Source: an uncultured Alphaproteobacteria bacterium
GTDB lineage: Bacteria > Pseudomonadota > Alphaproteobacteria > SMXQ01
NCBI GenBank assembly: GCA_963752345.1
Contig: CAVVYA010000002.1
Location: forward strand, 62,046-126,045
Direction: 5' to 3'
DNA: 64,000 nucleotides
Shown piece after piece: positions 6,192-36,419 of this stretch. Position 1 is the first letter of the stretch; every line of letters starts with the position of its first letter. Made by a program: the position numbers and the translations under genes. The notes under the pieces are model-generated. The model searched no databases, was not told the origin of the DNA, and saw only the letters and a program-made list of their open reading frames with translations.

Positions 6192-6335
6192 GCGGCCTGG
6201 CCGCCCGATCCGAGCGGCAGTCACCCGGCTTCTTCTTCAGAATTTTTGGATGCCGGCCGATCTTGCAGGATTTCCGAACGCCCGCTCGGCGACGGGCGCA
6301 TCCGAATGCCTGCCGGCGCGGCTGGCGGCCGACGG

Positions 6336-7280: not shown

Positions 7281-7428
7281 GGGACATTCCTGTGAAAGGA
7301 TTGTCCCAAGGATACGCCGATGCGTCTTACCGTAAGGTAAAGAAACCCTAAAATTTGCTGCGCATTCGGCGCGAAGACGAAGCGTCGGAAGGAGCCGGAG
7401 CCCCTTCCGCAGCGCGTTTTTTCCGCTA

Positions 7429-8292
7429 TCAGTCCTTGGCCGAGATCGGCTTGCCCGCGTACATCTTGCCGAGATAGGGCGCGGCCTTCTCATAGAGCAG
7501 CGCCGCGACGTCGTCGGCCTGGTAGTTCTTGATGAGCTGGTCGACCTGGCCGAAGAACGGCAGCGGCAGCTTGCGCTTCTGGGCGAGGTCGAGCGCGATA
7601 TCCATGTCCTTTTCCTGCCAGGTGAAGCGCGTGCCGTCCCAGCGCTCGAGCGTGCCGTTGGTGCCCGGGCACTGCAGCAGGGTCTCGCGCATCTTCTGGC
7701 CGTCGATGCCGTAGACCTTGGCGAGCAGGATCGCCTCGTAGTTGGCGATGCAATGGGCCCAGTGCAGCATGTTGTTGATGGTCTTGCCGATCTCGCCGGC
7801 GCCGAGCTCGCCCAGATGATGCACGGCGCGGCTGTAGGCTTCGAGCACGGGTCGGGCCTTCTCCACGTCCTTCTTCGCGCCGCCGACGGTCGAGGCGAGC
7901 GTGCCGTTCTTGGCGCCGTCGAGGCCGAAGCAGACCGGCGCGTCGATCACGCCGATGCCGGCCTTCTTGGCGATGGCGGCGCATTCGCGCACCATGTCGG
8001 GATGGCTGGTGGCGGTGATCACCAGTACCTGGCCTTTCTTGCCGCCGGCGGCGGCGATGTCGGTGACCACCTGCTTCACCTGATGGTCGAATCCGACCAT
8101 GATGATCACCACGTCGCAAGTGGTGGCGAGCTGCGCGAGCGATTTGGCGACCTTGGCGCCCTGCTTGGCGATGCCCTTGGTCGCCGCCTTGTTGATGTCG
8201 TAGACCCAGACTTCGTCGAATTTCTTGCTCTTGAGCACATGGCCCGCCATCGGTTCGCCCATGGCGCCGACGCCGACAAAACCCACTTTCAT
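7429..8292 (-). CDS. NAD(P)-dependent 3-hydroxyacid dehydrogenase family oxidoreductase (HIBADH / 6PGDH NAD-binding type)
   Basis: Start MKVGFVGVGAMG carries a Rossmann GxGxxG motif. RBS GGGAGAAG. 287 aa, typical for the family. Confidence 0.75.
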   Translation of the reverse strand: MKVGFVGVGAMGEPMAGHVLKSKKFDEVWVYDINKAATKGIAKQGAKVAKSLAQLATTCDVVIIMVGFDHQVKQVVTDIAAAGGKKGQVLVITATSHPDMVRECAAIAKKAGIGVIDAPVCFGLDGAKNGTLASTVGGAKKDVEKARPVLEAYSRAVHHLGELGAGEIGKTINNMLHWAHCIANYEAILLAKVYGIDGQKMRETLLQCPGTNGTLERWDGTRFTWQEKDMDIALDLAQKRKLPLPFFGQVDQLIKNYQADDVAALLYEKAAPYLGKMYAGKPISAKD

Positions 8293-11111: not shown

Positions 11112-13205
11112 TCACCCCTCCCGTTCCAGGATCAGGTTGCGGTAGGCATCCACCCGCGCGCTCCAATGGGCCGGAATGACCGTCGTCGCATCGAACTGCT
11201 CGACGATGGCCGGACCATAAATCTCGGTCCCGATGTGCAGCTTGTCGCGCTCGTAGAGCTTGGCCGGCGTGGCGGTCTGGCCCTCGAAATAGACGTTGCG
11301 CGTGCCCTTCGCCGCATCCTGGGCATTGCGGATGGTGCCGGGCGGTTCGGCGATGGGCTGGTATTTCGGCACGGCGACGCGCACGCGCAACCGGTAGCTC
11401 ACCAGTTCCACCGGTTTCTCCTGCGCGGCATGGCCATGGATCTGGGCGTGGCGCTCGTCGAAGCGGGCGCGTGCATCGACCAGCGACCGGGCCTCCAGCC
11501 GACCCTCGTAGAGCCCGTCGAGCGGCGTGCGCAGCTCGTAGCCCTGGCCGGTGTAGCGCAGGTCGAGCTCGCGCAGGAACTGCGCGTGTCCGTCGCTCAT
11601 GCCTTCGGAGGCGAGAGCCTCGCGCGCCTTGGCCTCCAGTTCGCGGAAGATCGCCTCCGCGTGCTCCGGCGTCAGCGCGGCGAGCGGCTGCAGTTCCGAG
11701 CGGATGTAGTCGTGCACCACGTCGGTGCAGAGCAGGCCGAGCGCGGAGAAGGCACCGGGGCGCGCCGGCACCAGGATGCGGCGCATGCCGAGCTCCTCTG
11801 CCACCGCCGCCGCATGGACCGCGCCGGCGCCGCCGAATGGCAGCAGGGTGAAGGCCGACAGATCGACGCCGCGCTTGGCGGCGAACACGCGCACCTCGTC
11901 GGCCATGCGCATGTCGACGATGCGGCGGATGCCGGCTGCGGCCTGCAGCACGCTCAGGTTCAGCGGCTTGGCGATATGGCGTTCGAGCGCGGCATGGGAC
12001 GCCTGGGCATCCAGCGTCTGCGTGCCGCCGAGAAAATACGCGGGATTGAGGAAGCCGCAAACCACGTCGGCGTCGGTCACGGCCGGCTGGCTGCCGCCGC
12101 GGCCGTAGCAGGCGGGGCCGGGGTCGGCGCCGGCGCTCTGCGGCCCGACAGTGAGGAAGCCGCCGTTGTCGATCGCGGCGATCGAACCGCCGCCGGCCGA
12201 GATGGTGGTCATGTCGAGCGCCGGCACATCGAGCTGGCGCCGCGCGATGGTGCCTTCGGTCACCTCCAGCGGCACGCCGCCTTCGATGAAGGCGATGTCG
12301 CAGCTCGTGCCGCCCATGTCGAGGGTGACCAGCCCGCTCATCGCCTCGTCCTTGGCGAGATAGGCGCTCGCCTGGGCGCCGGCCGCCGGTCCGGAGAACA
12401 GGGTATGCACGGTCTTGCCGCCGGCGATTGCGGCGGCGAAGGGCATGACGCCGCCGTTCGACTGCATGAGGAAGCGCTGGTGGGTATGGATGTCGGCCGC
12501 GTCGAGCCCCTTGCTCAGATGGTCGATGTAGCGCACCAGCACCGGCTCGAGATAGGCGTTGAGCAGGGTGGTCGACAGACGCGGCCATTCGCGGATGCGC
12601 GGCAGCACCTCGCTCGAGATCGAGACGGAGACGCCGGGGAATTCCGCCAGGATGATGCGGCGCGTCTCCTCCTCATGGGCCGGGTTCATGAAGGAGAACA
12701 GGTAGCAGACGGCGATGGATTGCACGCCCGCATCCTTCAGCGCGCGCGCCGCCTGCCGCACCGCGTCGCGGTCGAGCGGCAATAACACTTTGCCCGAGAA
12801 ATCCGAACGCTCTGGAATTTCCTTGGTCAGGCTCTGCGGCGCGATGGGCCTCGGCTTCTCGTAGAAATAGTCGAACGGGTTGCCGTCGCGTGCCTGGTTC
12901 TGGGTCTCCTGCACCGCGCGGTAGCCCTTGGTGATGAGCAGGCCGACCTTGGCGCCGCGCATTTCCAGGAGTGCGTTGGTGGTGATGGTGGTGCCGTGGG
13001 CGAAGAAACCGATCTCGTCGGGGTTTACGCCGCGGGCGATGAACTTCGCGACACCGTCGAGCACGCCGAGCGCCGGATTCTTCGGCGTGCTCGCCACCTT
13101 CTCGACCATGAGCGTGCCGCTCTCCGCGTCGAGCAGCACCAGGTCGGTGTGGGTGCCGCCCACGTCGACGCCGAGCCGGTAACGCGGACCACCGAGGATC
13201 GCCAT
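11112..13205 (-). CDS. hyuA: Hydantoinase A / oxoprolinase family protein (HyuA-like)
   Basis: MAILGGPRYRLGVDVGGTHTD has the actin-like ATPase N-motif. 697 aa. The stop lies 2 bp before the hyuB ATG. Confidence 0.85.
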   Translation of the reverse strand: MAILGGPRYRLGVDVGGTHTDLVLLDAESGTLMVEKVASTPKNPALGVLDGVAKFIARGVNPDEIGFFAHGTTITTNALLEMRGAKVGLLITKGYRAVQETQNQARDGNPFDYFYEKPRPIAPQSLTKEIPERSDFSGKVLLPLDRDAVRQAARALKDAGVQSIAVCYLFSFMNPAHEEETRRIILAEFPGVSVSISSEVLPRIREWPRLSTTLLNAYLEPVLVRYIDHLSKGLDAADIHTHQRFLMQSNGGVMPFAAAIAGGKTVHTLFSGPAAGAQASAYLAKDEAMSGLVTLDMGGTSCDIAFIEGGVPLEVTEGTIARRQLDVPALDMTTISAGGGSIAAIDNGGFLTVGPQSAGADPGPACYGRGGSQPAVTDADVVCGFLNPAYFLGGTQTLDAQASHAALERHIAKPLNLSVLQAAAGIRRIVDMRMADEVRVFAAKRGVDLSAFTLLPFGGAGAVHAAAVAEELGMRRILVPARPGAFSALGLLCTDVVHDYIRSELQPLAALTPEHAEAIFRELEAKAREALASEGMSDGHAQFLRELDLRYTGQGYELRTPLDGLYEGRLEARSLVDARARFDERHAQIHGHAAQEKPVELVSYRLRVRVAVPKYQPIAEPPGTIRNAQDAAKGTRNVYFEGQTATPAKLYERDKLHIGTEIYGPAIVEQFDATTVIPAHWSARVDAYRNLILEREG

Positions 13206-20107: not shown

Positions 20108-20195
20108 GACCATGATTGCGCGCGTCCGCCGATCCGGCCGGAACCGTTGATACCGCACATCGTTGATAGGCAGAGGCTGAACGCAGGAGGATTCC

Positions 20196-20348
20196 ATGCG
20201 CCTGTTTTTGCTCGCCCTTGCCACCGCCGCGTCGCTCGCGCTCACCGCGTGCGGCAGCGATGACAAGACCGTGGTGGTGCCGCCCGGCGGAACCGCGGTG
20301 ATCGAAGACGGCAACGCCAAGGTTTGCCCCGCCGGCCAGACCTGCTGA
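20196..20348 (+). CDS. Small lipoprotein (50 aa)
   Basis: AGGAGG RBS 5 nt before the ATG. MRLFLLALATAASLALTACGSDD has a lipobox. High GC3. Two C-terminal Cys residues. Below the ORF-track size cutoff. Confidence 0.55.
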   Translation: MRLFLLALATAASLALTACGSDDKTVVVPPGGTAVIEDGNAKVCPAGQTC

Positions 20349-20374
20349 CGCAACCCATTTATTCAGGAGACGAT

Positions 20375-20836
20375 ATGCCCCTGCCGCCCCGCACGCGCGC
20401 CTACGATGTTCCCGCCGTCCTCGATGTGCTGAACGAGATCCTCAAGATGGAACTCGCGACCGTGGTCTATTACACCCACTATTCCTTCATGGTGTATGGC
20501 CATGCGCGCATTCCGGTGATCGATTGGATGCGTGGGCAGGCGACCGAATCGCTGACCCACGCGCAAGGCGCCGGCGACATGATCCTGCGGCTCGAGGGGC
20601 GGCCCGACATGGGCATCGCGCCGCTGCCGTCGACCCATCACAACACGATCGACGAGATCCTGCAGGAAGCGGTGGTGCGCGAGAACGAGGGCGTCGAGCT
20701 CTATCGCAAGCTGCACGCGCTGATCAAGGACAAGTCGATCGTGCTGGAGGAATACGCCAGCCGCATGGTCGCCGCCGAATCGATGCATGTCAGCGAGATG
20801 CGCATGATGCTGCGCCGCTCGGCGCCGCAGAACTGA
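20375..20836 (+). CDS. Ferritin-like diiron protein (bacterioferritin family, without the heme-ligating Met)
   Basis: AGGAG RBS. Glu/His ligand pattern (ELATVVYY, ESLTHA, ENEGVELY, AESMHVSEM) aligns with Bfr ferroxidase-centre residues. Confidence 0.65.
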   Translation: MPLPPRTRAYDVPAVLDVLNEILKMELATVVYYTHYSFMVYGHARIPVIDWMRGQATESLTHAQGAGDMILRLEGRPDMGIAPLPSTHHNTIDEILQEAVVRENEGVELYRKLHALIKDKSIVLEEYASRMVAAESMHVSEMRMMLRRSAPQN

Positions 20837-20923
20837 CGGCCTTCCGTCATCGCCCGGCTCGTGCGTCAGCACGCATGCGCATGACGCCGGGCCGTCTTTC
20901 ACAGAGCAACGCACCGATCACCA

Positions 20924-21011
20924 TCGTCATGCCCCGGCTTGTCCGGGGCATCCACGACTTTGTCGGAGGCGAAAAGAACGTGGATGGCCCGACCAGGTCG
21001 GGCCATGACGA
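20924..21011. repeat. Second copy of the compound REP-like palindromic element (tcgtcatg-hairpin-catccacg ... cgtggatg-hairpin-catgacga)
   Basis: Outer 8-mers are complementary to each other. Inner hairpins are gccccggcttgtccggggc and ggcccgaccaggtcgggcc. Same family as 18859-18952. Confidence 0.7.
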
Positions 21012-21049
21012 TTAGAAACACACCGCCCGAGGGTATTCGGGTGCGTCGC

Positions 21050-22510
21050 TCACACGAACTCCGGCGTTTCCTGGATGTAATGCTTGGCGAGTTCGGCGCG
21101 CCATTTTTCCATGGTGGCGCGGTTGAGCTCGACCGGCGGCTTCTGGTGCGGCGGCAGCAGCGGCTTGTATTGCGTATCGGCGATCTCTTCCTGGAACACG
21201 CGCTTGGCTTCGGCGACCACCGCCGGGTTCTTCAGGCATTCGACGACCGAGCCCGCGAGCACCTTGGCGCCGGCCACGGCGCCCTTGTGGGCGATCGAGG
21301 TGGCGAGCGCCACGCCGGCCGCCCAGTGATGGGCGTTCACGTTCGGGATGTTGGCCGGATAGTAGAACTTCACCATCGGCACCTTCCATGAGACATCGCC
21401 GGAGTCGTTGGCGGACGGCTTCTGGTCGCCGCCCTTGACCGGCGGAATCGCCGTGCGCAGGCCCTCGACCTTCACCTTGGCCTTGGCCTGCAGCGTGCGC
21501 GCGAGATCGTTCTCTTGCGGGCTCCATTCGGGCGAGCCGACCAGCTCGATGTTGCGCTGGACCAGCTCGGCCAGCGTGCGGTTGCCGCGCACCGGCCAGA
21601 CCGCGCTCATCACGTCGACCTCGACACTGGTGTTGGTCATCATCGCCGCGCCCTCGGCGATCTTCTTCGCCTGGTCGAACAGCTTGCCGGCGAGCTCGGC
21701 GCTCGAGGCGCGGAAATACCACCACACGGACGCGCGGCGCGGGATGACGTTCGGCTGGTCGCCGCCATGGGTGATGACGCGCTGCGCCAGCATGGTCGGC
21801 ATGAAATGCTCGCGGTACTGCGCCATGCCCATGTCCATCAGCACCACGCCGTCGAGCGCGTCGCGGCCTTTCCACGGCGCGACGCCGGCATGCGCCAACT
21901 CGCCATGAAAGGTGAAGGTGGCGGAGATCAGCGCCGACTGGGTCAGGCCGTAGCCGACCTTGAACTCGGCGGCGATGTGATCGTGGAAGGCGATGTCGAC
22001 GTCGTCGAAATAGCCGTCGCGCACGAAATAGGGCCGGCTGATCACCTGCTCCTCGGCCGGCGCGCCGAATACCTTCAGCGTGCCCTGGAAGCCGAACTTG
22101 TCCATCGCGGCTTTGGCGGCGAGCGCGCCGCCGACCAGCACGGCGGCATTGACGTTATGGCCCTCGCAATGGCCCGGCGCGCCGTCGACGATGTGTTTTT
22201 GTTCCGCGACCCCGGCGGCCTGGGAATTGTCCGGGTTGGCGTCGAATTCGGTGTGCAGCGCGATCACCGGCGAGCCCGACCCGTAGGTCGCGCAGAAGCC
22301 GGTCGGAAAGCCGGCGATGCCGCGCTCGACGGAGAAGCCGGCCTTCTCCAGGATGCCCGTCAGCAGCTTGGCGGTCTCGAACTCCTGCATGCCGAGCTCG
22401 GCGAAATGGAAGATGCTGTCGCCGACCAGGCCGATGGCCTTGCCGTTGCGCGCCACATGATCGAAAACGAACTGCTTCTCGGGAGCGAGATTGCCGGTGG
22501 TGTTGTTCAT
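21050..22510 (-). CDS. M20D-family amidohydrolase (AbgB / aminobenzoyl-glutamate utilisation protein B-like)
   Basis: Start MNNTTGNLAPEKQ at 22508-22510. Family-wide similarity (FHFAELGMQE...GHCEGHNVN...). The upstream in-frame extension is R/P/S-rich and rejected. Confidence 0.75.
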   Translation of the reverse strand: MNNTTGNLAPEKQFVFDHVARNGKAIGLVGDSIFHFAELGMQEFETAKLLTGILEKAGFSVERGIAGFPTGFCATYGSGSPVIALHTEFDANPDNSQAAGVAEQKHIVDGAPGHCEGHNVNAAVLVGGALAAKAAMDKFGFQGTLKVFGAPAEEQVISRPYFVRDGYFDDVDIAFHDHIAAEFKVGYGLTQSALISATFTFHGELAHAGVAPWKGRDALDGVVLMDMGMAQYREHFMPTMLAQRVITHGGDQPNVIPRRASVWWYFRASSAELAGKLFDQAKKIAEGAAMMTNTSVEVDVMSAVWPVRGNRTLAELVQRNIELVGSPEWSPQENDLARTLQAKAKVKVEGLRTAIPPVKGGDQKPSANDSGDVSWKVPMVKFYYPANIPNVNAHHWAAGVALATSIAHKGAVAGAKVLAGSVVECLKNPAVVAEAKRVFQEEIADTQYKPLLPPHQKPPVELNRATMEKWRAELAKHYIQETPEFV

Positions 22511-22529
22511 CAGGCTTTGACCTTGTTCA

Positions 22530-23771
22530 TCAGACTTTGATTTTGGTTTTTTCGGCGATGCGGTTGGCCTGAGTGGCGGCGCCGACCGGGCGCACCAGGC
22601 TTGCCGCGCGCTTGGCGTTGGCGCGCGCGGTTCCCGTGTCGGCGGCGCGCGCGAGGGCCACGCCCATGCGGCGCTTGCGGAAGCTCTCCGGCTTGCCGAA
22701 CAGCCGCACGTCGGAATTCGGCACGGCGAGCGCCTCGGCGAGACCCTCGAACACGATGGCCTTCTCGTCGAGTCCGCCATAGATCACGGCACTGGCCGCC
22801 GGCGTGGCGAGCTCGGTCGAGACGGGAAGGCCGAGGATGGCGCGCGCATGCAGCTCGAATTCATTCTGCGTCTGGCTCGCCATCGTCACCATGCCGGTGT
22901 CGTGGGGCCGCGGGCTGACCTCGCTGAACCACACCTCGTCGCCCTTGACGAACAGCTCGACGCCGAAGATGCCGCGGCCGCCGAGCGCCGTGGTGACCTT
23001 CTCGGCGATCTCCTTGGCCTTGGCGAGCGCTCCCTGGGTCATCGGCTGGGGCTGCCAGGATTCGACATAGTCGCCATCGACCTGGACATGGCCGATCGGT
23101 GCGCAGAACGATGTGACGATCTCGCCTTCGGCATTGCGCGAGCGCACGGTGAGCAGCGTGATCTCGAAATCGAAATCGATGAAGCCCTCGACGATGACGC
23201 GCGGCTGGGCGACGCGGCCGCCCTTCAGGGCATAGGTCCAGGCATCGTCGATGGCGCTTTCCGTTTTCACCGTGCTCTGGCCCTTGCCGGATGACGACAT
23301 CACCGGCTTGATCAGACAGGGCAGGCCGATCTTGCGGATGGCCGCCTTCACTTCATCCGCCGATCCGGCGAAGGCATAGGGCGAGGTCTTGAGGCCGAGC
23401 TCCTCGGCGGCGAGCCGGCGGATGCCCTCGCGGTTCATGGTGAGCTGGGCGGCGCGCGCGGTCGGGATAACCTCGGCCAGCCCTTCGCGCTCGATGGCGG
23501 CCAGCGCGTCGGTGGCGATGGCCTCGATCTCCGGCACCACGAGCTGCGGCCTTTCCCGCTCGATCAGCGCGCGCAGCGCCTTGCCGTCGGTCATGTCGAT
23601 GACGTGGGCGCGATGCGCCACCTGATGGCCCGGCGCATCGGCATAGCGGTCGACGGCGATGACCTCGACGCCGTAGCGCTGCAAGGCGATGATGACTTCC
23701 TTGCCGAGCTCGCCCGATCCCAGCAGCATGACGCGGGTGGCGAGGGGGCTGAGCGGCGTGCCGATACGCAT
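22530..23771 (-). CDS. purT: Formate-dependent phosphoribosylglycinamide formyltransferase (PurT)
   Basis: [16 protein letters not shown]...[10 protein letters not shown] closely matches PurT. 413 aa with an ATP-grasp fold. Confidence 0.9.
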
Positions 23772-24171: not shown

Positions 24172-24265
24172 TTAGGTGGGGGGTGCTGTTAGGCCTCCTG
24201 TGGGAGAGTTGCGGCAAGACGAATCGATGCCGGCGCTGGCCGGTGCGGAAAGACGCGAAGGGACA

Positions 24266-25335
24266 ATGACGGCAAGCGATATTCTCACCACCGATCGGCT
24301 GCTCGACCATATTTCCACCGCGCCCGCCATCGCCGGGCAGCCCGTCAAGCTCTTCGTGCGCGAAAAAGTCCGCGCCGATATCCGGGAGGCGGGCGATCGG
24401 ATCGTGCTCATGGTGCATGGCGGCTTCTGGCCATCCGACCTGGCGTTCGATTTTCCCCACGAGGATTACAGTTGGATGGACGCCCTGGCGCGGCAGGGCT
24501 GGGATGTGTTTGCCATGGACATGACCGGCTACGGCCGGTCGAGCCGTCCGCTGATGGACGACCCGCGCAATCTCGACCCGGCCCAGCAGCCGTTGCTGGT
24601 GCCACACGTGCTCGCCGCGCCGGCCGCGCCGCGCAATCCGGTCCAACTCGTGACCAGCGACAGCGAATCCGACGACATCGACCGCGTCGTGGATTTCATC
24701 CGGCGTTTACGCGGCGTCGATCGAATTTGCCTGCTCGGCTGGTCGGGCGGCGGCTGCCGCGTCGGCAGCTACACGGCGCGCCATCCGGAGAAGGTGGCGA
24801 AGCTCGTCATCTATGCCTCGTCCAATTATGCGCGCGACGGCGAGAGCAAGCCGCCCCGCCGGCTTCCCGCGCCTGGCTTTCCGATGATCCTGCAAACCAA
24901 GCGCGGCATGGACGAAGAGCGCTGGGGCCCGGCGATCACCTGCGAGCGCCAAGTGGCGCCGGGCATTCAGGATCTGCTTGGCGGCTTTGCATGGCGTCCG
25001 ATCCGGTCAGCGCCGTCTGGGGCGGCTTGCGCGGACCGACGCGCAGCTATTGGGGCTGGAACGGGGCGACCGCCGGCGCCCTGAAGCCAGCCGGCGCTGG
25101 TTCTGATCGGCGCCAACGACGGCTGCTGCCGGCGAACCGCGACCTGTTCGACGACCTCGGGTCCGATCGCAAGGCGCTGGTCGAAATCGCCTGCGCCTCG
25201 CATTTTGCTCAATGGGAAATGCAGCGCAGCCTGCTGCACCGGCTGTCGTTCGATTGGTTGGAGCAAGGCACCGTCAATGGAGAGACCAGCGGCCGGTTTA
25301 ATGCCGACCCGTCGGGATTGCTCAGCCGCCGCTGA
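24266..25335 (+). CDS. Alpha/beta-hydrolase fold protein (esterase/lipase-like, GWSGGG nucleophile elbow); C-terminal third disrupted by at least 2-3 frameshifts in this sequence
   Basis: AAGGGA RBS, then MTASDILTT. VLMVHGG and LLGWSGGG motifs in the first frame (to ~24990). The catalytic His region LVEIACASHFAQWE and the C-terminus are in ORF 24472..25335. A PALVLIGANDG strand appears in a third frame around 25091-25123. Confidence 0.55.
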
Positions 25336-25519
25336 GCTGGGCTGCGGTGCTGCTCATCAATTTCACACGGCCGAGAATGGCGTAACGTGTTGATAATTAT
25401 TGAGATGTTCATTACGGCGAGGCGGCGTCAGGGTAACGGCGGCGAAATTTACGGTATATAGTGAGCAACTACGAGGCTTGAACGTTAGATTCTGACGTCA
25501 GCACAGGGGATTCTCTGGA

Positions 25520-26944
25520 ATGTCGAGCAACGTCATACCGTTAAGCCCACTTGGGTACTTCGACGATCCTTCCCGGATTCTGGAAGCACCGCCGCGCCTG
25601 ATCGAGATGCTACCCCTGGCGATCTACGCCTGTGGCGTGGACGGCCGTATCCGTTGGTTCAATACGCGCGCCACCGACCTGTGGGGCCGCACGCCCCGTC
25701 TTGAAGACGGCGAGATGTTTTGCGGCGCGGACAAAATAATCGACACCAATGGACGGCATGTCCGGCACGACCAACTTCCGATCGTGCAGGTGCTGAAAAC
25801 CGGCAACCGAGTGGATGGCAGCAAAGCCGTCATCGAGCGGCCGGACGGATCGCGCGTCACCGTGATGGTCCACATCGACGCGATCCGGGATGCCGACGGC
25901 CAGATTATCGGCGCGATCAACTGCTTTCATGACGTGACCGAGCTGAAACGCGCCGAGCAAGCCTTGCAGGAGCGCGAACGGTGGTTTCACGATCTGCTCG
26001 AGGCGTTGCCGGCGGCCATTTACACGACCGATGCGGACGGGCGCATCACATTTTACAATCAGGCCGCCATCGACCTGTCGGGCCGCCGTCCGGAGCTTGG
26101 CAGCGACGAGTGGTGCGTGACCTGGAAACTTTACCGGCCGGACGGCACGCCGCTGCCCCACGATCAATGTCCGATGGCGGTGGCCTTGAAGGAAGACCGC
26201 GTAATCCGTGGTCCGGAAGCGATCGCGGAACGGCCGGACGGCACGCGCCTGTCGTTCGCGCCCTACCCGACGCCGCTGCATGACGGCAGCGGGAAGCTGG
26301 TGGGCGCGGTTAACATGCTGGTGGACATCACGGCGCGGAAACAGGCCGAACAGCGTATGGAGCTGCTGGCGCGTGAGGTCGACCACCGCTCCAAGAACAT
26401 GCTGGCGGTGATCCAGGCCATGGTGCGCTTCACCCAGGCCGATACCCCGAAGGATTTCGCCGCCACCATACTCGGACGTATCTCCGCGTTGGCCAATGCG
26501 CACACGCTGCTGTCCGAGAGCCGCTGGGAAGGCGCCGACCTGAAGCGCTTGGCGGAAGAAGAGGTGGCTGCCTATCGCACCGATAGCGAGACGCGCGTGC
26601 GGATCGACGGCCCTACGGTCGCCCTCGTGCCGAACGTCGCCCAATCCCTCGCGATCGTGCTGCACGAGCTGACGACCAATGCCGTCAAGCACGGCGCTCT
26701 CGCTCACCCTGATGGCCAGGTTTCCGTCACCTGGTCGCAGGTTGAGAATGGCGCTCTCCGCTTGTGCTGGACCGAGACGGGCCCCGCCCGCCTCCGACAG
26801 ACCCCGCGCCGGGATGGATTCGGCATGAGCGTCATCAAACGGACAATCGAGGATCAACTCGACGGCGCTGTGGCATTGGACTGGGCCGATAGCGGCCTCG
26901 TCTGCAATATCCAGATTCCCGCGGCGACCATGGCCCGCGGGTAA
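25520..26944 (+). CDS. Cytoplasmic sensor histidine kinase, two PAS domains plus HWE-family kinase core
   Basis: Two PAS-like segments. H-box (VDHRSKNMLAVIQAM), N-box (HELTTNAVKHGA) and the HWE-type W..E motif (CWTETGPA). No TM helices. Confidence 0.85.
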   Translation: MSSNVIPLSPLGYFDDPSRILEAPPRLIEMLPLAIYACGVDGRIRWFNTRATDLWGRTPRLEDGEMFCGADKIIDTNGRHVRHDQLPIVQVLKTGNRVDGSKAVIERPDGSRVTVMVHIDAIRDADGQIIGAINCFHDVTELKRAEQALQERERWFHDLLEALPAAIYTTDADGRITFYNQAAIDLSGRRPELGSDEWCVTWKLYRPDGTPLPHDQCPMAVALKEDRVIRGPEAIAERPDGTRLSFAPYPTPLHDGSGKLVGAVNMLVDITARKQAEQRMELLAREVDHRSKNMLAVIQAMVRFTQADTPKDFAATILGRISALANAHTLLSESRWEGADLKRLAEEEVAAYRTDSETRVRIDGPTVALVPNVAQSLAIVLHELTTNAVKHGALAHPDGQVSVTWSQVENGALRLCWTETGPARLRQTPRRDGFGMSVIKRTIEDQLDGAVALDWADSGLVCNIQIPAATMARG

Positions 26945-26987
26945 GCGCGTCCCGCGCCTTACACGCCGTATTCTGTCGGAGTCGAGA

Positions 26988-27305
26988 CTAACCTCTGGCG
27001 CGTTCGCCGTTACGCAACGGTACGATGTTGCCGACTTCTCCTTTGATGATCTCGGCAATCGATTCGTCGCGGGCGATATTTTCGGGCGGGCAGTCGTCGA
27101 TGACGAAATCGGCGAGCGACGGCCGCGATTGACCCGACTCGCGCAGCCAGGCTTCGAACGGCGGCTTGCCCATCAGATCCTCGATGGCCTCTTGGTAGTT
27201 GCCGCCCCGGCCGACGGGACTCGCGGCATAACTGACAAAGGTGGGACCCGTCGCGACCCACTGATCGCCGTCGCGAGACAAGCGGTAACAGCCCGGGTTT
27301 TCCAT
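26988..27305 (-). CDS. Hypothetical protein (105 aa), convergent with the HWE kinase
   Basis: GGAGGT RBS 7 nt before the ATG at 27303-27305 (MENPGCYRLSRDGDQWVATG...). High GC3. No family recognised. Confidence 0.5.
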   Translation of the reverse strand: MENPGCYRLSRDGDQWVATGPTFVSYAASPVGRGGNYQEAIEDLMGKPPFEAWLRESGQSRPSLADFVIDDCPPENIARDESIAEIIKGEVGNIVPLRNGERARG

Positions 27306-27448
27306 CTGCATACCTCCACGGATGGCGGGCGGCGCAAATCCGAGATCGCGCATCCCGCGCGCGCAATTCATGTCTGCCGTCTGTTAAACGCTCGATCCGT
27401 CCGGGAGGTTGCACAACCGGATCGCTATCCGCGAGGACCGACGCTGGC

Positions 27449-27486
27449 AAAAAAAGCAAACACCGGGCGACGCGAATCGCCCGGTG
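27449..27486 (-). terminator. Rho-independent terminator (minus strand) downstream of 27536..27901
   Basis: 10-bp perfect stem (caccgggcga / tcgcccggtg) with a 6-nt loop. It is followed on the minus strand by TTTGCTTTTTTT. Confidence 0.7.
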
Positions 27487-27535
27487 CGCTGAGCGGAAGA
27501 CCCGACGATTGGTTGGGCTTCCTTACGCGTGAGTG

Positions 27536-27901
27536 TTAGTCGTTTTGGCCGCGCGGCACGTCCCCGCCACCGCCAGGGCTCTGCCCCGGAATTGTCTGGG
27601 ACTTGCGGCTCGAAGGATCGGAGGGCACCGTGCCGCTGCCGGCTGTGCCCGGCGCGGTGCGGACGGTGCTGCCCGAATCCGGAACGGCACCTTGCTGCAT
27701 ATGACGGTCATACTCCGCCTGAATGCGGGCGCGTTCTTCCGGTGTCTTCGCCGCCCGCAGGCGATTCTGATAATCCTGATCGAGCTGGCTGCGGTTTTGC
27801 ATTTGGGCCTGCGCCAGTTGCTGCGGGCTATCGGCGATCGCCGCGCTCGACACGCCGAGGAAAAGTGAACCGGCGATGAGGGCTGTTGCCTTTAACATCA
27901 A
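27536..27901 (-). CDS. Secreted small protein, Gln-rich helical region and Gly/Pro/Ser-rich tail
   Basis: Signal peptide MMLKATALIAGSLFLGVSSAAIA-DS, then a Q-rich region (QQLAQAQMQNRSQLDQDYQNRL...). A terminator lies downstream. Confidence 0.6.
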   Translation of the reverse strand: MMLKATALIAGSLFLGVSSAAIADSPQQLAQAQMQNRSQLDQDYQNRLRAAKTPEERARIQAEYDRHMQQGAVPDSGSTVRTAPGTAGSGTVPSDPSSRKSQTIPGQSPGGGGDVPRGQND

Positions 27902-28184
27902 TCAATCTCCTTCTGTGGGTGTGCTTTCCGTCAGCACTCACCCAATCCAATGGTTGCCCGCTCCAATTGTTCCTGGAACAACGCCGCGTTTCTCGGGAAC
28001 CCGCGGAAATGTCTAGGGAACGGGTGAAAAAAAATTGCGTCGCTCGCGATGGCTGCGCGGTGAATCTTGGCAAAAATGCGGCGGCGGGATTGATTATCAT
28101 TGCGTGGCGACTAAGACGGACGTCCCGCGCAATAGGTGGATGCAACGACGCGGCGAACGTCAGCAGTGGCCGGCGGCGCGTGCA

Positions 28185-28592
28185 TCACGGATAGAGTTCG
28201 AGCGCTCCCGCAGACCGATCCAAAGGCTGACCGGCGATCAGGGCTCGCGCGGTGGCAATCGCCTGGACCAGCTCGGCATCGTTGAACGGCTTGCTGAGGC
28301 AGCCGAGGGCACCGGCCTGCAGACCGACTCGCCGGCAATCGGTCGGGTTGCCCGACACGAAGATGACTGGCACCCCGTACATCTCCAACAAGTGACGCGC
28401 GGCGATCGCGCCGGAGGCCGTATTGGCGAGGTTGAGATCGACCAGCGCGAGGTCCGGCCGCTGGGCGGCGGCAATGGCGAGAGCGGTCGCCACGTCACGC
28501 GCGATCCCCACCACGCTGTGGCCGGTGTCGGTCAGAATGGCATCGATTTCCAAAGCGATGATCGCTTCGTCTTCGACGATCAGAATACGCAT
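28185..28592 (-). CDS. Single-domain response regulator (receiver only)
   Basis: MRILIVEDE...DLALVDLNL...SKPF receiver motifs, with phospho-Asp in LVDLNL. The GTG at 28607 is also possible as the start. Confidence 0.75.
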   Translation of the reverse strand: MRILIVEDEAIIALEIDAILTDTGHSVVGIARDVATALAIAAAQRPDLALVDLNLANTASGAIAARHLLEMYGVPVIFVSGNPTDCRRVGLQAGALGCLSKPFNDAELVQAIATARALIAGQPLDRSAGALELYP

Positions 28593-29283
28593 TTTACAGT
28601 GTCCCACGATTGCGAGCAGGGCTGCCCCATCCGCCGCCTAGTAAATGGTGGCCGGCCAACTTGGTTCCATTTGGCCGCTCCGTGCGGATACGAGCGTGGC
28701 GCTTCCCGCGCGGCAAAGATGCGACAGCGCAAGGGCTTAGGTAGGATCGCCCGAAACGCGCCTCGTGCGGCAGCGTGTCCACGCTTCGGACGAGAATCAC
28801 GATTCGGGATCGCTGGCGGGGCGGGCGCTCCGCCACGTTGCCGGCCAGTCCGCCGTTGCTGGTATTCCAGCGCAGGCGCGCGACATGGCGAGGGCCGTTG
28901 AAATCGGTTCTGTCCCAGGACGGGAAGCCGGTTCCAAGCATGCCACTGGCAAAGACCGCTCGGGCGCTCTGCGAAGAGTTCGAAAATCCTCTCCGCGCGC
29001 GCAGTCATCACGCGCCAGGTTCGGGTAGGAAGCCGCGCACTGGCGTCCGCCGACTTTCTTTTGCCCGAGCCGTGAGGAGCTGTTGAGTGGGCCCAGTGGA
29101 CAGTCTCGTCTGCGCTGGGCGCGTGTCCACGCCCTGCGGCGGCGCGCGCCGGTGCCCGCTCTGACGATGACGATATTTCGCTTTGCGGGCCGGGTGCCCG
29201 CGTGCTGCAATGCGCGTCAATAACGCGGCCGCACCCGCTCGGGAGGCGGTGATCGAGCCGCGGGGCAAATGGGGGAGACGAAC

Positions 29284-30345
29284 ATGCATTTCGCTTTGCG
29301 TGCACTTCTGACCTGCTCTGTCGCCGTGCTGACGATCCTGGCGTCGGCCACTGCCGGCGCTCAATCCACGACGCAATCGACAGCCGGCCAATCGCCCGCC
29401 GACTTCTACAAGGGCAAGACCATCGACCTCATCGTCGGTTACGCGCCTGGCGCGGGCTACGACGCCTATGCCCAGCTGTTGCGCAGCGCCTTCAGCAAAA
29501 ACATGCCGGGTAATCCCAATGTCTTGATCAAGCATATGCCGGGCGCCGGCAGCCTGATCGCGGTCAATCATCTCTATAACCGCGCGCCGCGCGACGGCAC
29601 GGTGATCGGCCTGTTCAACCGCGCGGCACCCATGGAGCCGATGCTCGCCAACGAGAATGCTCAATTCGATCCGGCGCGGCTTAAATGGATCGGCAGCCTG
29701 AACAACGAGGTCAGCATCTGCGCCGCATGGCATACTGCGCCGGTGCGTACCTGGGACGACGCGACCAAGCACGAACTGATGATGATCGTCGGCAACATCA
29801 CCGACGATACCGGCATCTTCCCGACCATCCTGATGAACATGTTCGACGCCAAGTTCCGGCTGATCACCGGCTTCGGCGACGGCACCAAGATGGACCTCGC
29901 CTTCGAGCAAGGCGAGGGCAACGCGCGCTGCGGCTGGTCGTGGGGCACCGCGAAGCAGCGCCGCGGCGAATGGTTCACCTCGGGCCAGGCGATTCCTTTC
30001 GTGCAGTTCGGCCTGCGCAAGCATCCCGATTTGCCGAACGTGCCGCTGGTGCTCGATCTGGCGCGCAACGACGACGAGCGCGAGGTGCTCAAGCTGCTGT
30101 TCGCGCGCCAAGTGATGGGCCGTCCCGTCGCCGGACCGCCCGACATCCCCGCCGACCGCTTCGCCGTCCTGCGTCAGGCCTTCGCCGATACCATGAAGGA
30201 TCCGGAGTTCATCGCCACCGCCGAGAAGATGAATTTCGAATACGAATTCGTCAGCGGCGAGGAGGTCGAGAAGATCGTTGCCGACATGTCGCGCGCCTCG
30301 CCGGCGGTGGTGAAAATGGCGATCGCGGCGACGAAGCGGCGGTGA
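29284..30345 (+). CDS. TctC/Bug-family periplasmic solute-binding protein (orphan tripartite tricarboxylate transporter receptor)
   Basis: GGGGGAG RBS. Signal peptide. IDLIVGYAPGAGYDAYAQLL...HMPGAGSLIAVNHL...PRDGTVIGL matches the TctC family signature. No tctA or tctB is adjacent. Confidence 0.75.
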   Translation: MHFALRALLTCSVAVLTILASATAGAQSTTQSTAGQSPADFYKGKTIDLIVGYAPGAGYDAYAQLLRSAFSKNMPGNPNVLIKHMPGAGSLIAVNHLYNRAPRDGTVIGLFNRAAPMEPMLANENAQFDPARLKWIGSLNNEVSICAAWHTAPVRTWDDATKHELMMIVGNITDDTGIFPTILMNMFDAKFRLITGFGDGTKMDLAFEQGEGNARCGWSWGTAKQRRGEWFTSGQAIPFVQFGLRKHPDLPNVPLVLDLARNDDEREVLKLLFARQVMGRPVAGPPDIPADRFAVLRQAFADTMKDPEFIATAEKMNFEYEFVSGEEVEKIVADMSRASPAVVKMAIAATKRR

Positions 30346-30366
30346 TCAGGCTCCTCCGAGCACGCG

Positions 30367-31152
30367 TCAGCGAACCGACGCGGCGCTCGCCGCCAGGTTG
30401 TTCGGGTCGAGGCCGAGCGCCGAAATCGTCGTCGGCGTGAGTTGGCCGGTAGCGTCGATCCCGCGGCTCCGTTGGAAGCGGCTCAAGGCCGCCTCGGTCC
30501 GTGGTCCCCACACGCCGTCGATCGCGCCCGAATAGAATCCATTCTGGCGCAGCTTCAGCTGGATGCCGCGAACGACGCCCCGGTCGAGCGTGCTGCCGGC
30601 GAAAGTTGCGCCAGCCGGCGCGCTCTGGTTGGCACCCGCGGTCCGCGTGGGAAATGTGGATACGTCGAGTCCCATGGCGGCAACGCTCGCGCGGGTCACT
30701 TGGCCGACCTGCAGGCCCCGGGCGCGCTGAAAGTTCTCGAGCGCGACCTGGGTTCCCGTACCCGAGACGCCGTCTGCGGGGCCGTTATAGAAATTGAGCT
30801 GGCGCAACCGGTTCTGAATCGTGCGCACGTCGGTCCGATCGGTGATCGAGATCGGCGCCGCATCCGCGTCGCGTAGCGCGCTGACCGTCGCACCATCGAG
30901 CCGCGCCGAGATCGGTATCCCCTGGCTGCGCTGGAAGCGCTCCACCGAGGCCTGAGTTTCCGGACCCCAAAGGCCGTCCGCCGCGCCGTCATAGAGGCCG
31001 AGCGTGCGAAGGCGGTTCTGGGCGTCGCGCACCTCCGCTGATGGCTGAGGCGCCTCGGCGCGCACCGTGCGCGAAGCCGTCGACGACGGGGTCTGGGTGT
31101 TGGCACAGGCGGCGACAAGGAGCGTGGTGGCGAGCAGGGCGATGAGCTTCAT
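30367..31152 (-). CDS. Lipoprotein with four tandem peptidoglycan-binding (PG_binding_1-like) repeats
   Basis: Lipobox LLVAACANTQ. A roughly 60-aa unit (IQ.RLR.LGFY.G..DG..GP.T..A...FQR..GL) occurs four times. Confidence 0.75.
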   Translation of the reverse strand: MKLIALLATTLLVAACANTQTPSSTASRTVRAEAPQPSAEVRDAQNRLRTLGLYDGAADGLWGPETQASVERFQRSQGIPISARLDGATVSALRDADAAPISITDRTDVRTIQNRLRQLNFYNGPADGVSGTGTQVALENFQRARGLQVGQVTRASVAAMGLDVSTFPTRTAGANQSAPAGATFAGSTLDRGVVRGIQLKLRQNGFYSGAIDGVWGPRTEAALSRFQRSRGIDATGQLTPTTISALGLDPNNLAASAASVR

Positions 31153-31349
31153 CCCGGTCTCCTACGGCGAATGCCCATAGGGTCGATGGGCGCGACCAGC
31201 CTCTCTTCGGAGATAACGTCCGAGATACCGCGACGCTCCGTGGCGTCGAAGAATGTCCTGATGGTTATCGTGGGCCCTCCGGTGACTTCCGGCGTCTCAT
31301 TCAGCGGCCCCTTCCGGTTCGCCGCAGCGTCGAGACGCGACTTGGCCAT
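31149..31349 (-). CDS. Possible small protein (66 aa) whose stop overlaps the start of the PG-binding lipoprotein gene (ATGA)
   Basis: GAAGG about 8 nt upstream of the ATG at 31349. Moderately high GC3. No homology recognised. Low confidence. Confidence 0.3.
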   Translation of the reverse strand: MAKSRLDAAANRKGPLNETPEVTGGPTITIRTFFDATERRGISDVISEERLVAPIDPMGIRRRRPG

Positions 31350-31424
31350 CGTCGGCCTTCAATTAGTCCATCCCGGCGCGGAGGTCGTGATGGGCTTGCG
31401 GGACAGCACCGGAGCGGCTGCCGC

Positions 31425-31841
31425 CTAACAAGGAACTCCACTCAGTGGTGTGATATCCTCGGCGGGCCACCTGGCCCGATTTACAAATCGCTCGACCGTT
31501 TCCAAGAAGTCGACGATCGCGATCGGCTTGGACATATAGCCGTCGCATCCCTCTCCCAAAATGCGATCTTTGTCGCCTTGCATGGCAAATCCCGTCACCG
31601 CGACCACGGGAATGTGCCGCAGCGACGGATCCCGTTTGATGCAACGGGTCACTTCCAGCCCCGATACATCGGGCAGCTGAATATCCATGAGGACGAGGTC
31701 TGGACGATGTTCGCGCGTCAGACTTAACGCGGTCGCGCCATTCATCGCGCTGAGCGTTCGAAAACCGTCGTTCTCCAGAACGTCGCACAGCAACCGCATG
31801 TTCAATCCATTATCCTCGACAATCAAGATCGTCTTCGACAT
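31425..31841 (-). CDS. DivK-like single-domain response regulator
   Basis: MSKTILIVEDNGLNMRLL...DLVLMDIQLPDVSGLEV...IPVVAVTGFAMQGDKDRI...GYMSKPI closely resembles the DivK family. Confidence 0.8.
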   Translation of the reverse strand: MSKTILIVEDNGLNMRLLCDVLENDGFRTLSAMNGATALSLTREHRPDLVLMDIQLPDVSGLEVTRCIKRDPSLRHIPVVAVTGFAMQGDKDRILGEGCDGYMSKPIAIVDFLETVERFVNRARWPAEDITPLSGVPC

Positions 31842-32216
31842 CTCACATCCTGTATTTGACTCGATGTTCGTCGAACGCAAATCACGGGTCGCGGTTCACG
31901 CCAGCCGAATCCGTACGCGGTCGCGCCTCGCCAGAGCCGTCTGTCGTCAGATCGTGGTGGTGTGAATTATTCAGGAGATTGTCGCTGTGGGTAACTGCCA
32001 AGCGCACTTGACAGTTTTGTGGCATGTCGGCGCTAAAACTGACGTTTTTCGTCATGGGGTAAGAAGAAGCCAGCCACGTGGGCCTTCCCTCGGACGGCAC
32101 AGGTGGCACGAGATTGCTGTATCTTTCCGTAAACTATTGATCGTGACCGTGTCGACCGACCGCGTGTGAACGGCTAATAGTCCACACAGCGCGCACCATT
32201 GGGGTTATGGTGTGAC

Positions 32217-32402
32217 ATGCGAGAAATAGCGTCGTTGTCCCCTTATGCTTCACAGTCACTGCGAGATGAGTTAGATCAGCTATTACACGGCTTAGAGGTG
32301 GCCTGCGGAGTGTTGGGGGACGACCCGCAGGAAGCCCTGCGCGTTATCCAGTCCATCAAGGACCGTCTCGCATACGTCCGCGCGAGCACTAGGTTCATCT
32401 AA
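32217..32402 (+). CDS. Possible small protein (61 aa) with atypical, AT-richer codon usage between the two DivK-like genes
   Basis: The ATG at 32217 lies in an open frame (MREIASLSPYASQSLRDELDQLLHGLEVACGVLGDDPQEALRVIQSIKDRLAYVRASTRFI). The local GC is lower than surrounding genes. No clear RBS. Low confidence. Confidence 0.3.
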   Translation: MREIASLSPYASQSLRDELDQLLHGLEVACGVLGDDPQEALRVIQSIKDRLAYVRASTRFI

Positions 32403-32519
32403 TTCACGGACTTCGATAGTCAGCATCCGGTGCCGCGATCGCCCGTCACCCAAGCTTTCGTCAAAGCGGTAGATGTGGCTCATCGGTGACGCAGCAGCTG
32501 AGCCCGATTGTCAACCACA

Positions 32520-32951
32520 TCAACGGCGTTTGGCCGCATCTCCATCAGTGTCCGACAGGTCGGGACGCTCGGATGGGTTCTCACTGTCGGCCAGCAACTT
32601 TTCGACCAGTTCACTGAACTCCGTTATTCTGACGGGCTTTGCCATATAGGCGTCGCATCCGGCGGCTCGAAACTTTTCTTCATCGCCCTTCATGGCAAAG
32701 GCCGTGACGGCGAGAATAGGGCCAGGCTTAAGAAATGGATGGTCCTTGATCGAGCGGGCCACCTCCAGTCCTGACATATCCGGAAGCTGGATGTCCAAAA
32801 TGATCAGGTCCCAATCGTGGGCTCGCGCCAGTTGGAGCGCGGCCATCCCGCTATAGGCACGCGTTGTGTCATAGCCTCGGCTCTCTAGAACATCGCTGAA
32901 GAGCTTCATATTCATCTCGTTGTCTTCAACCACGAGAATTTTTTTCGCCAT
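32520..32951 (-). CDS. DivK-like single-domain response regulator (second paralogue)
   Basis: MAKKILVVEDNEMNMKLF...DLIILDIQLPDMSGLEV...AVTAFAMKGDEEKF...AYMAKPV, very DivK-like. Confidence 0.8.
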   Translation of the reverse strand: MAKKILVVEDNEMNMKLFSDVLESRGYDTTRAYSGMAALQLARAHDWDLIILDIQLPDMSGLEVARSIKDHPFLKPGPILAVTAFAMKGDEEKFRAAGCDAYMAKPVRITEFSELVEKLLADSENPSERPDLSDTDGDAAKRR

Positions 32952-33136
32952 TGTCCCCCCTACTCAACGCCGTACCATTAGCAACGCTTTGCTTGGGTCA
33001 ATAGACAGCGCTGCAATAGGTTAATTTGATGCTCATTTCGAAATGTGCCTGTGTATTAGCAAAAACATTAGCAAAATGACGATCGGCAGCGCGTCGTAAT
33101 GCGCCGTGCGGCCTACTTAAATCCTTGACTTCATTG

Positions 33137-33212
<76 letters not shown>

Positions 33213-35228: not shown

Positions 35229-36419
<1,191 letters not shown>

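Follow-up and report, generated by a model that had tools for sequence, protein, structure and literature searches.

A probable mosaic at a tRNA-Thr gene: an HWE kinase module and two divergent DivK-family receivers in an uncultured alphaproteobacterium

The stretch analysed here, positions 25520-32951 of 64 kb of DNA (the window) from an uncultured alphaproteobacterium (contig CAVVYA010000002.1), carries a histidine kinase of the HWE type, three receiver-only response regulators (REC140, DivKb and DivKa) and three exported proteins. A first-pass annotation, made from the sequence, had taken these genes for one signalling neighbourhood that could link envelope or cell-wall status to a DivK-type switch. 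Our analysis favours a different account, namely that the stretch is probably a mosaic of three layers with different histories and not one co-evolved circuit. The first layer (25.5-28.6 kb) would be a lineage-conserved kinase module made up of the kinase, an orphan protein (hyp105), a Gln-rich exported protein and REC140. The second would consist of exported genes, encoding a TctC-like protein and a peptidoglycan-binding (PG-binding) lipoprotein, which are gained and lost between close relatives. The third, reaching from the lipoprotein gene to tRNA-Thr(UGU), appears to be a hot spot of recombination and insertion with a cargo almost entirely of single-domain receivers. Three elements of this account, namely hyp105, the relic of a further receiver (REC137) and the tRNA-Thr gene itself, had been overlooked in the first reading.

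The comparison draws on contigs from other samples that hold close kin of the kinase, the lipoprotein or the DivK-like proteins. Kinase orthologues in L082, L083, L086 and L088 are 81-97% identical and their neighbours are unchanged. In L082 (kinase 97% identical) the order is hydrolase, kinase, hyp105, Gln-rich protein, receiver, TctC-like protein, lipoprotein, DUF3606 protein, hyp92 and REC137, the last converging on DivKb, which is followed by tRNA-Thr; DivKa is absent. L083 (88%) runs from purT through the kinase, hyp105, the Gln-rich protein, the receiver, the lipoprotein and a DUF3606 protein to tRNA-Thr, with neither a TctC-like nor a DivK-like gene. L086 (82%) resembles L083, with a slot before the tRNA that holds DUF3606, hyp92, REC137, a 66%-identical DivKb, a small open reading frame (ORF) and three more REC140-type paralogues. 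L088 (83%) has an MFS transporter instead of the lipoprotein, and L087 (65%) retains only the kinase and the convergent receiver. The kinase lies off the contig in the other three: L090 reads tRNA-Thr, a second DUF3606 gene, two small ORFs and DivKb convergent with REC137, again without DivKa, and in L084 and L085 DivKa comes directly after tRNA-Thr.

The conserved unit is the kinase, hyp105, the Gln-rich protein and REC140, and the ratio of non-synonymous to synonymous substitution rates (dN/dS) of these core genes is 0.06-0.25. The TctC-like gene was found only in the window and in L082 and is missing between receiver and lipoprotein in L083 and L086, and the lipoprotein gene is missing in L088; both are gained and lost among close relatives. 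The parts do not travel together, and the proposed envelope-to-DivK neighbourhood finds no support in this check of its conservation.

Divergence and composition change along the stretch as well. Between the window and L082, DNA identity is 95-99% over 24281-30280 and 78-88% from 30281 on. A sharp recombination breakpoint lies at 30281-30400, at the boundary of the TctC-like and lipoprotein genes. At synonymous sites, the kinase genes of the same two contigs have diverged by 0.05 (dS) and their DivKb genes by 0.25, approximately five times as much. Both DivK-like genes (55-56% GC) and the 47%-GC spacer to the tRNA form a low-GC block of 1.9 kb beside tRNA-Thr. GC content at third codon positions (GC3) is 0.63 in DivKa and 0.67 in DivKb, against 0.72-0.93 in every neighbouring gene. 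The lower GC noted at first sight is thus real, although it had been placed between the paralogues and in fact extends over both genes and the tRNA spacer.

Within the third layer, the recent history of the window can be read from a relic of REC137 with 33 codons (FRFAAASRRDLAIVGLQLVH..PGAEVVMGLRD), in which the acceptor Asp has become Gly. The relic is 59-61% identical over 32-33 aa to the intact REC137 of L082 and L086 (E=1e-7, tblastn) and matches positions 8066-8161 of L082 at the DNA level (E=4e-8, blastn). Intact REC137 converges on DivKb at this very position in L082, L086 and L090. The arrangement in the window therefore derives from an L082/L086-like one, minus DUF3606, hyp92 and most of REC137. 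By the same comparison DivKb would be part of an older arrangement common to L082, L086 and L090. The DivKa segment and the 600 bp that follow it have no counterpart in L082, where 240 bp separate DivKb from the tRNA; DivKa, with some 600 bp of unique DNA, lies directly against the tRNA, as it also does in two other relatives.

The two DivK-like genes had been placed about 640 bp apart, and the gap measured between ORF ends is 639 bp. This spacer shows no similarity to the relatives beyond the flanking genes, matches no Rfam family, and contains small ORFs without a Pfam match; a search for control elements in it returned no promoter-like site and one weak terminator-like site. An opposite-strand ORF of 67 codons within the spacer (32199-32402, +) would give a helical-looking product; it has no homologue in the relatives and no family match and is probably not a gene. 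The spacer between DivKa and the tRNA (32952-33136) has homologous counterparts at the corresponding place in L084 (83% identity) and L085 (76%). It includes the ribosome-binding site of DivKa, GGGGGGA 5 nt 5' of the ATG, and presumably its promoter; DivKb starts at an ATG after an AGGA motif.

tRNA-Thr bounds the variable zone in L082, L083, L084, L085, L086 and L090, and across relatives the slot holds from 0 to about 6 single-domain receivers in differing combinations. The slot of L086 (8100-12457) contains four or more paralogues of the REC140 type, which share 40-55% identity with REC140, and repeats at 11340-11750 suggest one more uncalled receiver, giving about six in the slot. In L085 (1-669) tRNA-Thr stands at one end of the DivKa-like gene, and some 45 nt of the 3' half of the tRNA are repeated at the other, where they run into the coding sequence and provide the stop codon. 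Such bracketing is the signature of insertion at the tRNA. Like tRNA-linked islands and islets, the slot adjoins the 3' end of a tRNA gene, is atypical in composition and varies between strains, and in L085 the cargo is enclosed by the tRNA on one side and a partial copy of its 3' half on the other. The slot differs from such islands in its size (approximately 2 kb, up to about 4.4 kb in L086), in having no mobility gene, and in a cargo that is nearly receiver-only and arose in part by local duplication. The window has neither an integrase gene nor flanking tRNA-derived direct repeats: no integrase-like ORF is present in 31.1-33.1 kb, and a search of the window for att-like copies or repeats of the tRNA-Thr 3' end gave nothing above shuffled background. 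No integron-like repeats flank the receiver genes of L086, where the only repeats lie inside paralogous coding regions.

DivKa and DivKb belong by sequence to the DivK family, as had been proposed, and the phylogenetic check places both of them outside its canonical clade. Response_reg is the sole Pfam domain in each. DivKa matches Caulobacter DivK (PDB 1M5T) at E=1.3e-39, far beyond other solved receivers. A scan of one genome per species yielded 80 canonical divK loci across Alphaproteobacteria, to which DivKa is 54-60% and DivKb 53-62% identical, whereas canonical DivKs share 65-100% identity among themselves (median 76%). In a distance-based neighbour-joining tree of 123 columns, the canonical DivKs split from DivKa, DivKb, PleD receiver 1 and REC140 with 78% bootstrap support, and the tree does not unite DivKa with DivKb. 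Canonical DivK has 66 columns with conservation of 95% or more, of which 15 are changed in DivKa and 17 in DivKb; α4 of DivKb carries K88Q, E91K, E92D and R95L. L21V, E58D, E100D and V109I are derived states common to both proteins. Both proteins (143 and 138 aa) exceed the canonical length of 121-125 aa by C-terminal tails of 15-20 residues. DivKb was also considered as a truncated pleD and rejected as such; it is only 37-42% identical to PleD receiver 1, against 53-62% to DivK, and in the tree it does not fall among the PleD receiver-1 sequences.

Synteny gives a consistent picture. Sufficient downstream sequence was available for 75 canonical divK loci, and at least 53 of them have a pleD-type GGDEF ORF (approximately 455 aa) within 62 bp downstream, whereas pleD follows neither DivKa nor DivKb, so that neither gene is the syntenic divK, and no GGDEF motif occurs in any frame of the 64-kb window. 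The genome scan itself recovered canonical divK loci only, 49-61% identical and none syntenic with this locus. Both families are very rare: among 5.8 billion proteins, each has only 2-4 relatives above 70% identity. The only close relatives of DivKa are 91, 85 and 77% identical and those of DivKb 87 and 71%; below these come ordinary DivKs at approximately 60-67%. Both genes are under purifying selection, with dN/dS of 0.13-0.17 (DivKa) and 0.16-0.37 (DivKb), comparable with the core genes.

One reading of these data is that one of the two genes is the only real DivK of the organism, divergent because the host branches deeply, with pleD lost or moved. The host is indeed poorly sampled (its EF-Tu stands alone in a 90%-identity cluster), and all phosphorylation residues and Asp90 are kept in both proteins. 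The depth of the class, however, does not explain 53-62% identity, since canonical DivKs of Rhodospirillales, Caulobacterales, Hyphomicrobiales and Sphingomonadales are still at least 65% identical. One or both genes are missing at this locus in close relatives, and the GC3 of both is atypical for the genome. We consider this reading very unlikely.

The description of the pair as tandem paralogues, which implies local duplication, also had to be given up, as the two proteins share 51% identity over 128 aa, which is no more than either shares with canonical DivKs, and occur separately in relatives. A duplication produced by the assembly, whether through collapse or duplication of a repeat or through a chimeric join, can be dismissed with near certainty: at the DNA level the longest common stretch is 37 nt at 78% identity, and orthologues of either gene turn up independently in other samples, on contigs that match the window on one flank. 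What speaks for an artefact is that apparent frameshifts in the alpha/beta-hydrolase gene and in rlmB suggest an imperfect consensus. DivKa and DivKb are most likely accessory DivK-family receivers that reached the slot separately.

DivKa and DivKb are intact and retain the acidic pair together with Asp53, Thr83, Lys105 and Asp90; both would be expected to be phosphorylatable. The α1 helix of a receiver is reportedly, in the work of Skerker and Laub, the main determinant of the choice of kinase partner. This helix is near-canonical in DivKa (NEMNMKLFSDVLE) and DivKb (NGLNMRLLCDVLE), when compared with NELNMKLFxDLLE of canonical DivK, and is unrelated to α1 of REC140. Because it is of the DivK type and unlike that of REC140, DivKa and DivKb would more probably draw on, or compete at, the DivJ/PleC/DivL-type partners of the true DivK than the neighbouring HWE kinase. 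They may act there as competitors, buffers or extra allosteric effectors, with a canonical divK-pleD pair presumed to lie elsewhere in the genome.

The kinase itself conforms to the earlier description as a cytoplasmic dual-PAS HWE kinase. HWE_HK scores 88.2 bits against a Pfam cut-off of 22.8, and PAS_4 and PAS_9 each match in two stretches, indicating two PAS domains. An HWE-type dimerisation/phosphoacceptor domain is followed by a divergent ATPase domain, for which generic HATPase_c scores 22 bits, under its cut-off of 26.4. Residues 238-467 align to positions 104-333 of the 334 in the NCBIfam LOV histidine kinase model (216 bits), which covers the whole kinase core. No transmembrane or hydrophobic segment was found in the kinase (maximum Kyte-Doolittle score of 1.32 in a 19-residue window) and it is therefore assigned to the cytoplasm.

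REC140 is a receiver of another type. Its start is probably at 28592, which would give 135 aa in place of the 140 aa of the full ORF. The top NCBIfam matches are PRK13435 and the PhyR receiver, and its best solved relatives are PhyR receiver domains together with the small receivers 2N9U and 2LPM, which we take to be SdrG and the HWE-kinase-associated Sma0114, respectively. REC140 aligns only to positions 137-251 of the 258 in the PhyR model, the receiver part; lacking the N-terminal sigma-factor-like domain, it was rejected as a PhyR anti-anti-sigma factor. It was likewise rejected as an SdrG/MrrA (FATGUY) orthologue, as the PFxFATG[G/Y] motif after the conserved Lys is absent and the sequence reads KPFNDAEL / LSKPFNDAELVQ. 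REC140-type paralogues (window 28185-28230, L082 and L086) all end in P-x-x-[LM]-[EQ]-L-Y, seen as GALELYP, PNMELYYVI and GLQLYSYVV; this tail lies outside the standard receiver fold.

HWE/HisKA_2 kinases phosphorylate single-domain receivers that serve as hubs, shuttles or sinks (PMC5964349). REC140 stays near the kinase in every relative and is the sole neighbour kept beside the 65%-identical kinase of L087. Because of this lasting adjacency and the type of the receiver, kinase and REC140 are likely a cognate pair. The kinase would most likely sense a cytoplasmic cue through its PAS domains and phosphorylate REC140, which may then act by contacting other proteins or by shuttling or draining off phosphate, like LovR, SdrG and MrrA.

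It could be argued instead that every receiver in the locus serves the neighbouring kinase, with DivKa, DivKb and the REC140-type proteins as alternative acceptors or sinks of one branched pathway and strains varying the number of sinks. Every relative seen has one kinase per 1 to about 7 single-domain receivers, and DivKb is always tail-to-tail with a REC140-type paralogue in L082, L086 and L090. Promiscuity is known in HWE/HisKA_2 networks, and MrrA, a receiver of the HWE type, is phosphorylated by a HisKA kinase as well (PMC5964349). The near-canonical DivK α1 of DivKa and DivKb tells against this arrangement, as do the different composition and history of the DivK-like genes and the kinase, and L083 possesses the kinase without any extra receiver. 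We regard such a shared pathway as rather unlikely.

The exported proteins were central to the model of the first-pass annotation, in which they would signal the state of the envelope or cell wall to the kinase, which in turn would operate a DivK-type switch by way of both paralogues. The Gln-rich protein is exported as described, having an N-terminal signal sequence and 14% Gln in its mature part; it has no family match and is conserved in L082, L083, L086 and L088 with dN/dS of 0.06-0.17. The TctC-like protein carries a signal peptide, but its assignment to TctC is weak: the Pfam TctC profile scores 19.3 bits, under the cut-off of 27, with 77 of its 274 positions covered, and among solved Bug-family proteins the top match (E=1.8e-4) is confined to the N-terminal third. 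The third protein is a lipoprotein with lipobox LVAAC, and above threshold (150 bits, Pfam) it has three PG_binding_1 repeats rather than the four first counted. That these genes are physically interleaved in this genome, and that the exported Gln-rich protein is truly conserved alongside the kinase, fits the envelope model. Nevertheless, a kinase without a membrane or periplasmic part would have no direct contact with exported proteins. The TctC-like gene, the lipoprotein gene and either DivK-like gene can each be absent from close relatives, the use of both strands with gaps of 160-660 bp rules out an operon, and the breaks in composition and divergence speak against co-evolution. An envelope-sensing circuit of this kind is thus highly improbable.

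The features of the stretch are collected in Table 1. As first described, there are three single-domain receivers, and the response regulators of the region are receiver-only, with no output-domain regulator, sigma/anti-sigma pair or pleD. All three receiver genes lie on the minus strand.

Table 1. Features of the kinase-receiver stretch and its tRNA boundary, in window coordinates.
Feature	Position	Strand	Basis
HWE kinase, PAS-PAS, 474 aa, cytoplasmic; conserved core	25520-26944	+	Pfam, NCBIfam
hyp105, orphan, 105 aa, convergent with kinase; conserved core	26988-27305	-	
Gln-rich exported protein, ~120 aa; conserved core	27536-27901	-	signal sequence
REC140, receiver-only, PhyR-receiver/PRK13435 type; conserved core	28185-28607	-	Pfam Response_reg 68 bits
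TctC-like exported protein, distant Bug/TctC relation; variable	29269-30345	+	sub-threshold Pfam
PG-binding lipoprotein; start of recombinant zone	30367-31152	-	Pfam PG_binding_1, lipobox
REC137 relic, REC140-type receiver	31312-31404	+	tblastn, blastn
DivKb, divergent DivK-family receiver, 138 aa	31425-31841 (ORF to 31880)	-	Pfam Response_reg 89 bits
639-bp spacer, only in this genome, 56.5% GC	31881-32519	.	without recognisable gene
DivKa, divergent DivK-family receiver, 143 aa, acidic C-terminal tail	32520-32951	-	1M5T match
AT-rich spacer, 47% GC, tRNA-Thr to DivKa	32952-33136	.	composition
tRNA-Thr(UGU), fixed slot boundary	33137-33212	-	ARAGORN, Rfam

The gene set is flanked by purT (22530-23771) on one side and by a block of tRNA-Thr, rlmB, tRNA-Tyr, tRNA-Gly and tuf on the other. 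Beyond the genes described, the 64-kb window has no additional receiver and no additional kinase, and phyR, nepR and ecfG are absent from it. The upstream remainder carries Tad pilus and metabolic genes; the Tad/Cpa-type pilus set at 1268-7493 comprises a CpaE-like ParA ATPase, a CpaF-type T2SSE ATPase, a TadB-type T2SSF protein and a TPR protein. ORF layout suggests that the downstream remainder consists of rpoBC and ribosomal-protein operons. Cluster look-ups of ten housekeeping proteins mark the host lineage as poorly sampled: EF-Tu (35229-36419), EF-G, L1, S7, L2 and PurT are alone or nearly so in their 90%-identity clusters (15 billion proteins). A 'Vicinamibacterales' RpoB fragment, probably mis-binned, gives these clusters their sole organism name, and look-ups of the exact DivKa and EF-Tu proteins of the window returned no contig.

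Two genes near the stretch have apparent frameshifts. The alpha/beta-hydrolase gene (24176-25335, +) switches frame three times within approximately 200 bp relative to an intact 354-aa protein in L082, and rlmB (~34040, -) has its substrate-binding and methylase parts in separate frames; these are either pseudogenes or assembly indel errors. About 1.7 kb at 20846-22585, with an ORF at 21050-22780, is missing from L083 and L086, where the flanks are contiguous, and represents another indel. As to regulatory sites, the CtrA box (TTAA-N7-TTAA) has zero matches in the window, and no EcfG-type promoter motif lies inside the cluster. The sole exact EcfG-type motif of the window (GGAAC-N16-CGTT) is at 20140-20164 (+), 160 bp 5' of a Dps/ferritin-like gene (20324-20836, +), a typical target of the general stress response; one such match per window is the chance expectation.

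More tentatively than the three-layer mosaic itself, we propose that the segment bounded by the lipoprotein gene and tRNA-Thr may serve as a 'receiver nursery', in which receivers of two unrelated types, PhyR-receiver-like and DivK-like, are inserted, duplicated, exchanged and deleted among very close relatives without a mobility gene, and that the resulting strain-specific sets of phosphate acceptors may rewire HWE stress-type and DivK/CtrA cell-cycle networks. Several points weigh against the mosaic and the partnerships assigned within it. The ties between kinase and receivers are drawn from sequence and adjacency, and a canonical divK-pleD elsewhere in the genome is an assumption. The islet in the window has neither an integrase nor a flanking direct repeat. 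Tree support for the exclusion of both proteins from the canonical clade is moderate (0.78) and comes from 123 columns. Both types of receiver cluster repeatedly by this kinase in several relatives, which could mean a functional tie. Finally, in view of the apparent frameshifts in two other genes of the window, the sequence may hold indel errors.

Each part of the locus has known counterparts, whether the HWE kinase and its likely PhyR-receiver-like single-domain partner, the exported PG_binding_1 and Bug-like proteins, the receivers of the DivK family or the tRNA-linked variable islet. Less usual is a slot free of mobility genes whose nearly all-receiver cargo, of two types, turns over among relatives with 95-99% identity in their flanking DNA. 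The core module resembles LovK-LovR with MrrA of Caulobacter, the Pak kinases with SdrG of Sphingomonas melonis and Sma0113-Sma0114 of Sinorhizobium meliloti, in each of which a soluble PAS HWE kinase stands beside a receiver-only protein (PMC5964349). It differs from these HWE/HisKA_2 systems in that REC140 is without the PFxFATG[G/Y] motif of SdrG and MrrA and in that hyp105 and the Gln-rich protein, both specific to this lineage, have no described counterpart. With DivK of Caulobacter crescentus and its orthologues (1M5T), DivKa and DivKb share the receiver-only architecture, approximately 55-60% identity, the pocket, Asp90 and the α1 helix; they differ in their position outside the clade, their C-terminal tails, the lack of pleD downstream, and their location in a strain-variable, low-GC3 patch at a tRNA. 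divK-like genes of anomalous phylogeny were noted in Sphingomonadales by Brilli et al. 2010 (PMC2877005). Like DivKa and DivKb, these are off the species tree and outside the canonical DivJ-PleC-DivK set (PMC2877005), whereas here two lie side by side, an HWE module adjoins them, and turnover can be traced between close relatives.

The locus presents DivK-family receivers as accessory, exchangeable genes that are nevertheless under purifying selection, beside an HWE module with an expanded receiver family. DivK is usually regarded as a single, essential and highly conserved gene, and no other part of alphaproteobacterial phosphorelays is as poorly understood as single-domain receivers. If the accessory DivKs do compete for DivJ, PleC or DivL, the buffering of the cell-cycle switch would differ among strains of one lineage. 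If they are instead sinks for the HWE kinase, the locus would be a clear case of cross-family wiring. Either way, gene adjacency at this locus would be no guide to a common pathway.

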